Of a stretch of 64,000 nt of DNA, positions 48,718 to 55,379 are shown piece after piece. The stretch is taken from NCBI RefSeq assembly GCF_022846255.1, contig NZ_AP025682.1, one strand, 5' to 3'. The position numbers and the translations under genes are program-made. Within the stretch, counting starts at the first letter, position 1, and every line of letters starts with the position of its first letter. The stretch is from Escherichia coli. GTDB lineage: Bacteria; Pseudomonadota; Gammaproteobacteria; Enterobacterales; Enterobacteriaceae. A model generated the notes under the pieces. That model had not been told where the DNA came from, ran no database searches, and saw only the letters and a program-made list of their open reading frames with translations.

Positions 48718-48745
48718 AAGGGCGCGACGTCTGCGCCCTTTAAGT
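48718..48745 (+). terminator. Hairpin terminator after bglX
   Basis: AAGGGCGC-gacgtct-GCGCCCTT followed by TAAGTATTTA. Confidence 0.6.
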
Positions 48746-48856
48746 ATTTATCTGATTCTGCAACTGAATCCTTCCGCTCAGGCTAACCCCGCCATTATCA
48801 ACTATGCTTTTCTCTTAATTCGCTGAAAACAACAGTAAAAGAATGAGGAAAGCATC

Positions 48857-49774
48857 ATGCCACTCTCAAAGGTCTGGGCAGGTTCACTGGTTTTGTTGGC
48901 AGCCGTGAGCCTGCCGCTACAGGCGGCTTCCCCCGTTAAGGTTGGTTCAAAAATCGATACGGAAGGCGCGCTGCTCGGCAATATCATTTTGCAGGTGCTG
49001 GAAAGTCACGGCGTTCCTACGGTAAATAAAGTGCAACTGGGAACGACTCCCGTAGTGCGCGGGGCGATCACTTCTGGCGAGCTGGATATCTATCCGGAAT
49101 ATACTGGCAATGGCGCGTTTTTCTTTAAAGATGAAAACGATACGGCATGGAAAAACGCGCAGCAAGGCTATGAGAAAGTCAAAAAACTCGATGCAGAGCA
49201 AAACAAGTTAATCTGGCTGACGCCCGCGCCTGCAAATAACACCTGGACCATCGCCGTGCGTCAGGATGTGGCAGAGAAAAACAAACTCACTTCGCTTGCC
49301 GAGCTGAGTCGTTATCTGAAAGAGGGCGGCAACTTCAAACTGGCAGCCTCGGCAGAGTTTATCGAACGTGCCGATGCCTTACCCGCGTTTGAAAAAGCCT
49401 ATGGCTTTAAGCTCGGTCAGGATCAGTTGCTGTCACTGGCCGGTGGTGACACGGCGGTGACGATCAAAGCCGCTGCCCAGCAAACTTCTGGTGTTAATGC
49501 CGCAATGGCTTACGGCACCGACGGCCCGGTTGCGGCGCTGGGGCTGCAAACCTTAAGCGATCCGCAAGGCGTGCAACCTATCTACGCGCCTGCGCCAGTG
49601 GTGCGTGAGTCGGTGCTGAAAGAGTATCCGCAAATAGCACAGTGGCTACAGCCAGTCTTCGCCAGCCTCGATGAAAAAACATTGCAGCAGCTGAATGCCA
49701 GCATTGCAGTGGAAGGACTGGATGCCAAAAAAGTGGCAGCCGACTACCTGAAACAAAAAGGGTGGACGAAGTAA
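48857..49774 (+). CDS. osmF: Periplasmic glycine-betaine/osmoprotectant-binding protein
   Basis: 305-aa ORF with signal peptide; first gene of a four-gene ABC operon. Confidence 0.9.
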   Translation: MPLSKVWAGSLVLLAAVSLPLQAASPVKVGSKIDTEGALLGNIILQVLESHGVPTVNKVQLGTTPVVRGAITSGELDIYPEYTGNGAFFFKDENDTAWKNAQQGYEKVKKLDAEQNKLIWLTPAPANNTWTIAVRQDVAEKNKLTSLAELSRYLKEGGNFKLAASAEFIERADALPAFEKAYGFKLGQDQLLSLAGGDTAVTIKAAAQQTSGVNAAMAYGTDGPVAALGLQTLSDPQGVQPIYAPAPVVRESVLKEYPQIAQWLQPVFASLDEKTLQQLNASIAVEGLDAKKVAADYLKQKGWTK

Positions 49775-49780
49775 TTTCCC

Positions 49781-50938
49781 GTGACTTATCTACGTATTAA
49801 TCCTGTTCTGGCGCTGCTGCTGTTGCTGACGGCAATCGCAGCGGCGCTGCCGTTTATCAGTTACGCACCTAATCGTTTAGTTTCGGGTGAGGGGCGTCAT
49901 CTCTGGCAGCTGTGGCCGCAAACTCTCTGGATGCTGGTGGGCGTTGGTTGCGCCTGGCTGACAGCCTGTTTTATTCCCGCTAAAAAAGGCAGCATTTTTG
50001 CACTCATTCTGGCGCAATTCGTCTTCGTATTGCTGGTGTGGGGAGCTGGAAAGGCGGCGACACAACTGGCGCAAAATGGCAGTGCGCTGGCGCGTACCAG
50101 CCTCGGCAGTGGTTTCTGGCTGGCTGCGGCGCTGGCACTGCTGGCCTGTAGCGATGCCATCCGCCGAATCTCCACGCATCCGCTGTGGCGCTGGTTGTTG
50201 CATATGCAGATTGCCATTATTCCGCTGTGGTTGCTGTACTCCGGCACGCTTAACGATCTCTCGTTAATGAAAGAATACGCCAACCGTCAGGATGTGTTTG
50301 ACGACGCGCTGGCACAACATCTGACGTTGCTGTTTGGTGCGGTGCTGCCTGCGTTAGTGATTGGTGTGCCGTTGGGCATCTGGTGCTACTTTTCCACCGC
50401 GCGGCAGGGGGCGATTTTTTCTCTGCTGAATGTCATTCAGACCGTGCCTTCGATAGCGCTCTTTGGCCTGTTGATTGCGCCGCTTGCCGCGCTGGTTACG
50501 GCCTTTCCGTGGCTGGGAACGCTCGGCATAGCAGGAACCGGAATGACACCCGCACTGATTGCACTGGTGCTCTATGCCCTGTTACCGCTGGTGCGCGGCG
50601 TAGTAGTCGGCTTGAACCAGATCCCGCGCGATGTGCTGGAGAGCGCCAGAGCGATGGGGATGAGCGGGACGCAGCGTTTCCTGCATGTTCAGTTACCGCT
50701 GGCGTTACCGGTATTTCTGCGCAGCCTGCGGGTGGTGATGGTGCAAACCGTTGGCATGGCGGTGATTGCGGCGTTAATCGGCGCAGGCGGTTTTGGTGCG
50801 CTGGTTTTTCAGGGGCTGTTAAGCAGTGCCATTGATTTAGTGTTGCTGGGGGTGATCCCGGTAATTGTTCTGGCGGTGCTTACCGACGCGCTGTTCGATT
50901 TGCTTATCGCACTGCTGAAGGTGAAACGTAATGATTGA
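49781..50938 (+). CDS. yehY: Osmoprotectant ABC transporter permease
   Basis: 385-aa polytopic ORF. Confidence 0.9.
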
Positions 50939-51857
50939 ATTTAGCCATGTCAGCAAACTGATCGGCGCACAAAAAGCCGTTAACGATCTCAATCTCAATT
51001 TTCAGGAAGGGAGTTTTTCGGTGCTGATTGGCACATCTGGCTCCGGCAAATCCACCACCCTGAAAATGATTAATCGCCTGGTGGAGCATGACAGCGGCGT
51101 GATCCGCTTTGCCGGAGAAGAAATTCGTTCGCTGCCAGTGCTGGAGCTGCGCCGCCGGATGGGCTATGCCATTCAATCTATTGGCCTGTTTCCCCACTGG
51201 AGCGTGGCGCAAAACATTGCCACCGTGCCGCAATTACAAAAATGGTCGCGGGCGCGGATCGACGATCGTATCGACGAATTAATGGCGCTGCTGGGGCTGG
51301 AGCCGGATTTGCGTGAGCGTTATCCGCATCAGCTTTCCGGCGGTCAGCAGCAACGTGTGGGAGTGGCCCGCGCGCTGGCTGCCGATCCGCAAGTCTTGCT
51401 GATGGATGAGCCATTCGGCGCACTGGACCCGGTAACGCGTGGCGCGTTGCAACAAGAGATGACGCGCATTCACCGTTTGCTGGGGCGCACTATTGTGCTG
51501 GTCACTCATGATATTGATGAGGCGCTACGGCTGGCAGAACATCTGGTATTGATGGATCACGGTGAAGTGGTGCAGCAGGGCAATCCGCTGACGATGCTGA
51601 CTCGTCCGGCGAATGATTTTGTTCGCCAGTTTTTTGGACGTAGTGAACTGGGTGTGCATCTGCTTTCGTTACGTAGCGTGGCGGATTACGTGCGCCGTGA
51701 AGAACGGGCTGAAGGTGAGGCACTGGAAGAAAGGATGACGCTACGCGATGCGCTCTCCCTGTTTGTTGTGCGGGGATGCGAAGTGCTGCCGGTGGTGAAC
51801 ACGCAGGGGCAGCCTTGCGGCACACTGCATTTTCAGGATCTACTGGTGGAGGCGTGA
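50931..51857 (+). CDS. yehX: Osmoprotectant ABC transporter ATP-binding protein
   Basis: 308-aa ORF with Walker [10 protein letters not shown] and LSGGQQQR signature; overlaps the yehY stop. Confidence 0.92.
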
Positions 51858-51861
51858 GTGT

Positions 51862-52593
51862 ATGAAGATGTTGCGCGATCCGCTCTTCTGGCTCATTGCT
51901 CTGTTTGTGGTGCTGATTTTCTGGCTACCCTATAGCCAGCCGCTGTTCGGTGCTTTATTTCCGCAGCTGCCACGGCCCGTTTATCAGCAAGAAAGTTTTG
52001 CAGCTCTGGCGCTGGCTCATTTCTGGCTGGTGGGGATCTCAAGTTTGTTTGCTGTAATTATCGGCGTTGGTGCCGGAGTTGCCGTCACTCGCCCGTGGGG
52101 AGCAGCGTTTCGCCCGATGGTAGAAACCATTGCCGCCGTTGGGCAGACTTTTCCACCTGTAGCGGTGCTGGCGATTGCCGTTCCGGTGATGGGGTTTGGT
52201 CTGCAACCGGCGATTATCGCGCTGATCCTTTACGGCGTGCTACCCATCTTGCAGGCGACACTTGCCGGGCTGGGAGCGATTGATGCCAGCGTGACAGAAG
52301 TTGCGAAAGGTATGGGAATGAGTCGTGGTCAGCGACTGCGTAAGGTCGAGCTACCGCTGGCGGCTCCGGTGATTCTGGCGGGCGTGCGAACTTCGGTGAT
52401 TATCAACATTGGTACGGCGACGATCGCCTCAACGGTAGGGGCCAGCACGCTGGGTACGCCGATCATCATCGGGCTTAGCGGATTTAATACCGCGTATGTG
52501 ATCCAGGGGGCGTTACTGGTGGCACTGGCGGCGATCATCGCAGACCGCCTGTTTGAAAGGCTGGTGCAGGCGTTCAGCCAGCACGCAAAATAA
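51862..52593 (+). CDS. yehW: Osmoprotectant ABC transporter permease
   Basis: 243-aa polytopic ORF. Confidence 0.9.
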
Positions 52594-52681
52594 AGGTATA
52601 ACCTGCGAGCATGACGCCACCAATTCCGCCTAACGCCATAAACAGGAACAGGGCGATGACCCCAATTTTAGCTATGCGCAT
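52574..52681 (-). CDS. yohO: 35-aa single-TM small membrane protein
   Basis: ATG…TGA ORF translating to [35 protein letters not shown]; 3' end overlaps the yehW 3' end by about 20 nt on the opposite strand. Confidence 0.65.
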
Positions 52682-52740
52682 AATGCACTCCTTATGTTAA
52701 CGAAAGGATTGTACAGTAAAGCGCATTTGTTAACGAATCA

Positions 52741-53472
52741 TTAAATGCCGAGTGGGAAAATATCATGGCCTTGTTCCTGCCAACTGGTGAGTTGCTGCTG
52801 TTGGGCAGAGGTTCGATTTTCACCGCACCACACCAGCAATGTACGGCCTTCGAACAGTTCAGGGCGTAGTTGATTGAGCGAGTGAGCGAGGACATCAATG
52901 CGCCATCCTTGTTGACTGGCAATCCAGCCCTCCAGCCACAGACGGGTGGTATCGTGAATATTCCAGCCAACCACCAGCGCATCTTTACCCTGTTTTTTAC
53001 GTGCCGAAGCCAGACAAATGGCGATGTAGTTGATCAGTACGCCGTCGAGGATCGCCAGCAGCGCCTGGAGAGTCGGTTGTTGGCACTGAAGCCGTCGGCG
53101 CAGAGGAATAAACAGATGTGTGGTGAGTGTCTGGGCGGGGTAATCCTGACCGCGCTCTTTGATCCACGTTCGCAGGCTATGCAGATTGCCGCTTTGCAGG
53201 TAAGTCAGTAATGTTTCTTGCTGATCGCGCCAGCCGTTCTGCACATCAACATTTTCATTACTGAGCAGCATTTTTACTTTGCTGACCTGCACGCCGTTGT
53301 CGATCCAGCGTTTGATCTCGCGGATCCGGTCAATATCGGCATCGTTGAACAGCCGATGACCGCCGTCTGTCCGTTGTGGTTTCAGCAATCCGTAACGCCT
53401 CTGCCACGCGCGTAACGTGACAGGGTTAATATCACAAAGCAACGCCACTTCACCAATTGTGTAAAGCGCCAT
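52741..53472 (-). CDS. mlrA: MerR-family transcriptional regulator MlrA (curli/csgD regulation)
   Basis: 243 aa with N-terminal MerR HTH (MALYTIGEVALLCDINPVTLRAWQRRYGL). Confidence 0.92.
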   Translation of the reverse strand: MALYTIGEVALLCDINPVTLRAWQRRYGLLKPQRTDGGHRLFNDADIDRIREIKRWIDNGVQVSKVKMLLSNENVDVQNGWRDQQETLLTYLQSGNLHSLRTWIKERGQDYPAQTLTTHLFIPLRRRLQCQQPTLQALLAILDGVLINYIAICLASARKKQGKDALVVGWNIHDTTRLWLEGWIASQQGWRIDVLAHSLNQLRPELFEGRTLLVWCGENRTSAQQQQLTSWQEQGHDIFPLGI

Positions 53473-53693
53473 CGTCTCACCCTTGCTCGCGAGGTCCCGG
53501 TTTAACTTTAGACGCAGTTTTGCGAACCAGGTAGTTTTGCCCGTTTTTTGTGCATCTATAGGGTGATTTTATTTTTGCCAGGCGATTTTGAGTGATCGTA
53601 CTCACGAATTCTCATTTTTCTGCAAGAGTTCAAAGAAAGTTAAACGCAAGCAATGTATGTTACGCGTTTTAAAGGGAAGTGTGGTTTGCGGGT

Positions 53694-55379
53694 ATGTACG
53701 ATTTTAATCTGGTGTTGCTGCTGCTTCAGCAGATGTGCGTTTTTTTAGTCATTGCGTGGTTAATGAGTAAAACGCCATTATTCATACCGTTAATGCAGGT
53801 CACGGTTCGTCTGCCGCATAAATTTCTCTGCTACATCGTCTTTTCCATCTTCTGCATCATGGGCACCTGGTTTGGGTTGCACATTGACGATTCTATTGCC
53901 AATACCCGTGCGATAGGTGCGGTAATGGGCGGCTTACTCGGCGGTCCGGTCGTCGGTGGGCTGGTTGGTCTGACCGGCGGGTTACATCGATATTCGATGG
54001 GGGGCATGACCGCGCTAAGTTGCATGATCTCGACCATCGTTGAAGGATTGCTCGGCGGCCTGGTACACAGCATCCTGATCCGTCGCGGGCGCACTGATAA
54101 AGTCTTTAACCCCATTACCGCCGGTGCCGTCACGTTCGTCGCTGAAATGGTGCAAATGTTGATCATCCTGGCGATCGCCCGACCTTATGAAGATGCGGTG
54201 CGTCTGGTGAGTAATATTGCTGCGCCAATGATGGTCACCAATACCGTCGGCGCGGCACTGTTTATGCGTATATTGCTCGATAAACGCGCGATGTTTGAAA
54301 AATACACTTCGGCTTTTTCTGCCACTGCGCTGAAAGTGGCGGCCTCGACGGAAGGCATTTTGCGCCAGGGGTTTAACGAAGTGAACAGCATGAAAGTGGC
54401 ACAGGTGCTGTATCAGGAGCTGGATATTGGTGCAGTCGCGATTACCGATCGAGAGAAATTGCTGGCCTTTACCGGAATTGGTGACGACCACCATTTACCC
54501 GGCAAACCAATTTCTTCGACTTATACCTTAAAAGCGATTGAAACCGGTGAAGTGGTCTACGCTGATGGCAACGAAGTGCCTTACCGTTGCTCTTTGCATC
54601 CGCAATGCAAACTGGGGTCGACGCTGGTCATTCCGTTGCGTGGTGAAAATCAGCGAGTGATGGGTACCATCAAATTGTATGAAGCCAAAAACCGTTTATT
54701 CAGTTCAATCAACCGCACGCTGGGCGAGGGGATTGCGCAACTGCTTTCGGCGCAGATCCTCGCCGGGCAATATGAGCGGCAAAAAGCGATGCTCACCCAG
54801 TCAGAGATCAAACTGCTTCACGCCCAGGTGAATCCCCATTTTTTGTTTAATGCGCTTAACACCATTAAAGCGGTGATCCGCCGCGACAGCGAACAGGCCA
54901 GCCAGCTGGTGCAGTATCTTTCTACTTTTTTCCGCAAAAACTTAAAGCGGCCTTCGGAGTTTGTTACTCTCGCCGACGAAATTGAACATGTGAACGCTTA
55001 TCTGCAAATTGAAAAGGCGCGCTTCCAGTCGCGGTTGCAGGTCAACATTGCTATTCCGCAAGAATTATCCCAGCAGCAATTGCCCGCGTTTACCCTGCAA
55101 CCGATAGTGGAAAACGCCATTAAACATGGGACATCACAACTGCTGGATACAGGGCGAGTGGCAATCAGCGCCCGACGTGAGGGGCAACATTTGATGCTGG
55201 AGATCGAAGACAATGCCGGTTTGTATCAACCGGTAACCAATGCCAGTGGGCTGGGGATGAATCTGGTGGATAAGCGTTTACGTGAACGGTTTGGCGATGA
55301 CTATGGGATAAGCGTCGCCTGTGAGCCTGATAGTTACACCCGAATAACGTTACGACTACCATGGAGGGACGAGGCATGA
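53694..55379 (+). CDS. btsS: LytS-type sensor histidine kinase (5TM-Lyt, GAF, HisKA_3/HATPase)
   Basis: 561 aa from [13 protein letters not shown]…. Confidence 0.92.

Follow-up and report, generated by a model that had tools for sequence, protein, structure and literature searches.

The permease gene yehW, which closes the osmF-yehYXW operon, is overlapped tail to tail at its 3′-end by a 35-codon open reading frame (ORF) on the opposite strand, which raises the questions of whether so short an ORF is a real gene, what its product would look like, and whether the overlap couples it to the transporter, as the original prediction had proposed. These questions were addressed in a 64,000-nt stretch of Escherichia coli DNA, referred to here as the window, and coordinates are given on the window scale unless stated otherwise. 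The ORF reads from an ATG to a TGA on the minus strand at 52574..52681 and comprises 35 codons plus the TGA stop, whereas yehW occupies 51862..52593 on the plus strand according to the annotation, so that the two genes are convergent. Since ORFs of at least 20 aa are abundant, with 55 of them occurring in the 3.5 kb analysed here, a 35-codon ORF is not significant by itself. What raises this one above chance is the combination of a match to a curated family model, its presence in all of 80 loci sampled around the neighbouring gene mlrA, a coding signature, and a Shine-Dalgarno (SD) sequence at fixed spacing.

The ORF was identified as yohO. Its translation scored 80.1 bits with the NCBIfam equivalog model NF010225, “protein YohO”, whose curated cutoff is 57 (E = 8.8e-23), and the alignment extended over the full length, with residues 1–35 on model positions 1–35. 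The UniRef representative YOHO_ECOLI has the same sequence as the protein of the window, and the RefSeq annotation of E. coli at this ORF is yohO, including b4542 of K-12. In MG1655, yohO (b4542) lies at 2215657..2215764 and yehW at 2215745..2216476, with a 20-nt overlap as in the window. By megablast with the 186-nt yohO region, “yohO: protein YohO” was found annotated in 5423 of the 5426 complete E. coli genomes at 95–100% identity. Homologues carry the label PF27791 UPF0387_membrane in precomputed annotations, while a Pfam search, run with a copy of the database lacking a YohO model, returned a single match, to B12D, at the chance level (E = 0.36). The protein is thus the type member of the YohO/UPF0387 family (NF010225/PRK13681), with the same length, helix, position between mlrA and yehW and 20-nt overlap, and no difference from the family was found. 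The coding sequence at 52574..52681 was assigned from the ORF and its translation together with the NF010225 match, the RefSeq annotation, the identity to YOHO_ECOLI, the pairwise pN/pS ratio and the AlphaFold2 model, and both its identity as yohO and its status as a real protein-coding gene are firm. The gene name and the exact 35-aa translation had already been given by the original prediction, and both were confirmed.

Several observations on YohO have been published. Ribo-seq coverage was reported for yohO (bioRxiv 10.1101/2020.05.05.079178), and the same preprint cites Hemm 2008 for YohO being a membrane-bound small protein. In a 2025 proteomics study, YohO was detected by top-down mass spectrometry (MS) with a sequence coverage of <50% (PMC12529367). 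The ribosome occupancy and the MS detection together provide the translation signal that the original prediction had called for. At the transcript level, yohO showed a log2 change of −2.96 in an RNA-seq study of Shigella under anaerobiosis (PMC4229854), and in a screen for alanine export the ASKA yohO clone passed the first round only (PMC10299036). The gene, its family model, its detection by ribosome profiling and MS, and the catalogue entry of its overlap with yehW are therefore already known, and no function has been assigned to YohO in the searchable literature.

To examine conservation without selecting for YohO, we anchored the sample on the neighbour MlrA and took 80 loci, one per species, which span approximately 19 named genera of Enterobacteriaceae. 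A yohO homologue was found just downstream of mlrA in all 80 loci, in agreement with the expectation that the ORF would be conserved in related genomes, and its ATG is at the homologous position in 79 of them. The exception is Citrobacter amalonaticus AUH_CA_2023_1, in whose single-contig assembly a single-base frameshift falls in the N-terminal part of yohO (L008:3290-3400). A frameshift was also seen in yehW of Leclercia adecarboxylata NCTC13032 (L043:3398-4119), where the overlap with yohO is intact. As both assemblies have long contigs, the two frameshifts may be sequencing indels rather than marks of pseudogenes. Two further loci carry unexpected labels, “Chryseobacterium sp. 18061” and a metagenome-assembled genome of an “uncultured Raoultella sp.” (L055 and L009, respectively), and both show the typical Enterobacteriaceae synteny mlrA-yohO-yehW; for the first, at least, mislabelling or contamination of the assembly seems to be the cause.

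The coding signature was calculated from 80 yohO DNA sequences, all distinct, that is, 79 from the loci and the one of the window. In the yohO frame, the entropies at the three codon positions were 0.57/0.23/1.22, with the third positions free to vary, and the pairwise pN/pS was 0.29, compared with 0.45–2.7 in the other five frames. This shows that the yohO ORF is under purifying selection. In an exhaustive phmmer search against 1.84 billion representative proteins, no more than 17 clusters reached E<1e-3. Each of them is YohO, whether complete, truncated or fused, and Shimwellia and Mangrovibacter supply the most divergent ones. Based on the pN/pS ratio, the codon-position entropies and these 17 clusters, the YohO family is real, constrained and narrow, being confined to Enterobacteriaceae. 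Among the 120 matches listed for a search with the YehW protein, which was aimed at genes outside the family, none fell below 77% identity.

Next to the start codon, the signals for translation are conserved as well. The SD sequence AAGGAG lies at 52688..52693 on the minus strand, 6 nt upstream of the yohO ATG. Among the loci, it reads AAGGAG in 51 and CAGGAG in 20, its spacing to the ATG is identical in 74 of 80, and GGA within the motif does not vary across alignment A1, which comprises the 80 upstream regions. In the E. coli spacer (52682-52735, minus strand), UCCUU can pair with the SD and AUGCGC with the GCGCAU of the start codon, and a 281-nt fold had a z-score of −2.55; this anti-SD hairpin was rejected as an Escherichia-specific coincidence, because RNAalifold found zero conserved pairs in the 80 orthologous spacers and thus gave it no support in other genera. 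No Rfam family was detected in 52000-53800 at E≤1.

Further upstream, a −10-like hexamer, TACAAT, is located at 52708..52713 on the minus strand, 26 nt before the ATG. A counterpart was found in 79 of the 80 loci (TATAAT in 54, TACAAT in 17 and TATACT in 8), and in 77 of 80 it lies 25–27 nt from the ATG. The consensus of the 80 aligned upstream regions is TAATGGTTCATTAACAnnTGCGCTTCACCGTATAATCnTTnnGTTAACATAAGGAGCACATnATG. With the hexamer at this position, transcription of yohO would start near 52700, leaving a 5′-UTR of approximately 20 nt. Two TTAACA motifs, at 52728-52733 and 52695-52700 on the minus strand, bracket the −10 and are at least 90% conserved in the 80 sequences. Both motifs are retained in Klebsiella and Shimwellia, which have no mlrA upstream of yohO, and could form an operator or an element of promoter architecture. 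Loci of the Citrobacter freundii complex carry an 8-bp deletion between the first TTAACA motif and the −10. In E. coli, the −10 region also holds TGTACAAT, which we take to resemble half of a MlrA box; this reading was discarded, as the hexamer is TATAAT in most genera.

A scan with the sigma-70 consensus predicted no promoter on the yohO strand, because no −35 hexamer with sigma-70 spacing is present, and the −10 emerged from the comparative alignment only. The cassette made up of the −10, GTTAACA and the SD is, however, kept in Klebsiella, Shimwellia and Mangrovibacter, none of which has a close co-directional gene upstream, and a TTCATTAACA-like motif upstream is retained in Klebsiella and Shimwellia. 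From the survival of this cassette where no mlrA lies upstream, we infer that yohO is transcribed from its own promoter. It would then be an independent monocistronic unit, which in E. coli may also receive read-through from mlrA. This gene, at 52741..53472 on the same strand, ends 59 nt upstream of yohO and is followed divergently by btsS; read-through is possible because no terminator-like site was found by the scan in the 59-nt spacer. The original prediction had considered the expression of yohO with respect to the convergent overlap, and had missed both the conserved promoter-like cassette and the co-directional mlrA upstream. In the sample, mlrA precedes yohO in all 80 loci by construction, as the sampling was anchored on MlrA, and elsewhere the gene upstream of yohO is the divergent btsS in Klebsiella, a gene for a TonB-dependent receptor in Shimwellia, and an ArsR-type gene or metG in Mangrovibacter. 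In a genomic SELEX study, a peak of a minor-sigma RNA polymerase holoenzyme was recorded as “yohO > yehW < yehX” (class D, intensity 4.0) at MG1655 position 2214150, which is in older K-12 coordinates and not on the window scale (PMC5493296).

The protein itself is predicted to be a single hydrophobic helix, as originally proposed. AlphaFold2, supplied with 48 distinct homologues, modelled one continuous helix over residues 3–32 with a mean pLDDT of 93.4, and the GRAVY of residues 6–32 is 2.17. All sequences have Lys or Arg at position 5, and either Arg or His at position 33; with two basic residues on the N-terminal side against one on the C-terminal side, an N-in orientation is weakly favoured. 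Conservation along the helix is asymmetric. Residues 6–14 vary among hydrophobic residues, while the glycine-rich core M15-A-[ILV]-[GS]-G-I-[GS]-G-V-M-L-x-G-Y28, to which the YohO of the window conforms, is nearly invariant: G19, G22, V23, M24, L25, G27, Y28 and I31 are invariant in the 48 distinct sequences, and M15, A16 and I20 show little or no variation. The helix would thus have a generic hydrophobic anchor as its N-terminal half, and the glycine-rich C-terminal half may present a face that packs tightly on another transmembrane helix, either of further YohO copies or of a larger membrane protein. Judged by the conservation pattern, helix-helix packing in the inner membrane has about an even chance of being the way in which YohO acts. 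A profile search of the PDB found no YohO-like chain at E≤10.

The overlap between yohO and yehW covers 20 nt (52574..52593) and contains part of codon 30 to the stop of yohO as well as the last six codons and the stop of yehW, which bears out the antisense overlap of approximately 20 nt that had been read from the sequence initially. As residues 15–28 fall outside the shared segment, the constraint on them belongs to YohO itself, whereas some of the conservation at residues 30–35 could stem from the yehW frame and not from YohO. The 3′-end of the yehW orthologue overlaps yohO in 79 of the 80 MlrA-anchored loci, by 26 nt in 41 loci, 20 nt in 33, 23 nt in four and 17 nt in one, and the overlap is also kept in the contexts of Mangrovibacter, Shimwellia and Klebsiella that have no mlrA (20, 20 and 26 nt, respectively). 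Because it is kept in these three contexts, the yohO-yehW junction has outlived rearrangements of its flank, and the overlap is firmly considered ancient, dating to the common ancestor of Enterobacteriaceae. The 26-nt class comprises Enterobacter, Leclercia, Kosakonia and relatives as well as Klebsiella, and in this class YohO and YehW are each two residues longer, which is what is expected if a single in-frame 6-nt insertion in the shared segment lengthened both proteins in the Enterobacter/Klebsiella/Kosakonia group. The C-terminal tails are the most variable parts of both YohO and YehW, and pS, the measure of synonymous variation, is no lower for the overlapping codons than elsewhere (0.60 versus 0.57). 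Since the two coding sequences overlap and are not separated by any terminator-like site, full-length mRNAs of both genes must be complementary at their 3′-ends, and some transcriptional interference or duplex formation between them seems likely. As for the conserved overlap itself, a structural lock that holds two compact gene ends together is favoured over a switch that was selected for.

The one locus without the overlap, that of Escherichia sp. MOD1-EC7003, has lost osmF-yehYXW by a deletion of approximately 3.5 kb and encodes an identical YohO. At L002:3400-3770, the 5′-end of osmF (window ~48975) runs into the final ~90 nt of yehW (window ~52501), and a stretch of approximately 17 nt at the junction aligns to both sides. 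The yohO of this strain is intact and ends in a TAA stop, and the osmF promoter region still points at yohO. The DNA of the window in turn diverges from K-12 in a mosaic manner: the osmF-yehYXW block (48740-52340) is 89–98% identical to MG1655, with the lowest identity, 89–92%, over 51740-52339 inside yehW, and from about 52340 the identity jumps to approximately 99% through yohO, mlrA and btsS (compared to 56500). The whole operon block is at most 97.0% identical to any of the 5426 complete E. coli genomes and 90–95% identical to most of them, and the yohO region has 100% matches among complete E. coli genomes. This pattern suggests a recombination boundary inside yehW, approximately 250 nt before its stop.

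With the gene, its protein and its surroundings defined, the explanation that fits the whole best, and that we hold to be very probably correct, is that yohO, a gene already known and genuinely translated, encodes a 35-aa inner-membrane protein of one helix and is restricted to Enterobacteriaceae. The readings that go beyond this or against it differ in how well they withstand the evidence.

The best surviving of them takes YohO to be an accessory or regulatory subunit of OsmF-YehYXW that binds YehW or YehY, the overlap having been selected to tie their expression together. That small membrane proteins can modulate transporters is well established, with KdpF, AcrZ, MgtS, MntS and SgrT as examples, and the pairs in which such proteins modulate transporters or other complexes are KdpF of KdpFABC, AcrZ-AcrB, MgtS-MgtA, MntS-MntP, SgrT-PtsG and CydX-CydAB. 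YohO resembles these proteins in its size (they are ~30–50 aa), its one transmembrane helix, its narrow range and its position adjoining a transporter operon, and the invariant glycine-rich face of its helix suggests a specific partner. The junction with yehW is moreover the only invariant neighbourhood of yohO, while its upstream neighbour changes. However, YohO has no sequence similarity to KdpF, AcrZ, MgtS, MntS, SgrT, CydX or any PDB chain, no solved structure contains a YohO-like chain, and unlike kdpF or cydX, yohO is convergent to the transporter operon and does not lie inside it. It is not part of the transcription unit of the transporter, as it is on the opposite strand with its own promoter-like cassette, and the two convergent genes are not co-transcribed. 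OpuC/YehZYXW-type transporters are also far more widespread than YohO, which is limited to one family.

The same reading draws on the listing of the pair by ExcludonFinder, in which yohO-yehW is among the 165 convergent excludons that occur in half or more of 58 RNA-seq samples of MG1655; in that study the pair appears as a list entry only (PMC12288877). The transporter itself has been described as a low-affinity, non-osmoregulatory glycine betaine ABC transporter, in an EcoCyc paper that cites Lang et al. 2015. The coupling of yohO to the transporter, as originally proposed, is favoured by the persistence of the overlap in 79 of 80 loci and in genera without mlrA and by the excludon listing, but it is weakened by the unreduced pS of the overlap, where the synonymous sites show no extra constraint, and by the Escherichia lineage that lost osmF-yehYXW and kept an identical YohO. 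In addition, an overlap would prevent the two genes from separating whatever their functions are. On balance, a role of YohO as such an accessory subunit appears unlikely, suggestive as the unbroken linkage is, and the same low likelihood is given to the neighbouring OsmF-YehYXW being the partner of its helix. The fuller version, in which YohO would be a micro-subunit or regulator of OsmF-YehYXW specific to Enterobacteriaceae and the overlap would have been selected as a means of fixing how much small protein is made per transporter, is more doubtful still.

A second possibility, also doubtful, is that the locus acts mainly as RNA, with yohO transcription, driven by its own promoter and by read-through from mlrA, running antisense into yehW and controlling the 3′-end of the operon mRNA through interference or RNase III cleavage in the manner of an excludon, and with the peptide being secondary. 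In its favour, the two genes share coding sequence, and the scan found nothing terminator-like to separate the convergent units on either strand, including the plus-strand interval between the yehW stop and mlrA. The only terminator-like match near yohO, which falls inside its coding sequence in the sense orientation (52664..52649), was set aside as chance, since the number of such matches is not above that in shuffled sequence. The overlap is conserved, and the pair belongs to the MG1655 core excludome, being convergent with overlapping transcripts in at least half of the samples, like other convergent excludons (PMC12288877). Unlike excludons with regulated long UTRs, however, the coding sequences of yohO and yehW themselves overlap, and the overlap of their transcripts is unavoidable. 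Selection acts on the amino-acid sequence, as seen from the pN/pS of 0.29, the free third positions and the conserved SD, YohO was observed by MS (PMC12529367), and neither a conserved leader RNA structure nor an Rfam family was found. As regards mutual exclusivity, each side of the pair lies in a unit that depends on RpoS: in K-12, this holds for mlrA as well as for yehWXY (PMC10654073 and its supplement), and RpoS induces them together and not exclusively. The two convergent units therefore tend to be active at the same time, which fits poorly with a simple switch between mutually exclusive states.

The two remaining readings are essentially excluded. Like the peptides of type I toxin-antitoxin systems, such as Hok, Ldr, Ibs and TisB, YohO is a short, very hydrophobic single helix with an antisense RNA over part of its gene, here the 3′-end, and it could accordingly be imagined as the toxin of a module of this type that is checked by the antisense RNA. 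In contrast to these systems, the only antisense transcript of yohO is the yehW mRNA, an ordinary protein-coding mRNA, and no dedicated sRNA family was found (Rfam, 52000-53800). The gene is also single-copy with a strong, unoccluded SD, keeps a fixed synteny across approximately 22 genera and is under purifying selection, the native protein is detectable (PMC12529367), and the IPTG-induced ASKA yohO clone came out of the alanine-export screen alive (PMC10299036), all of which makes a toxin extremely improbable. Least probable of all is that the ORF is a chance antisense-strand frame near the end of yehW and no gene, which the abundance of short ORFs noted above might suggest and which conservation, coding signature, SD, family model and literature all contradict.

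YohO is one of many validated bacterial small membrane proteins without known function. The comparative details obtained here sharpen the picture of a gene that was already known and do not define a new kind of element, while the putative promoter of its own, the asymmetric conservation of the helix, the overlap that survived rearrangements of its flank and the natural deletion may be unpublished details. Taken together, the putative promoter, the glycine-rich half-helix, the unbroken junction with yehW and the natural loss of the transporter reduce the number of hypotheses on what YohO does in Enterobacteriaceae and offer concrete mutations with which these can be tested.
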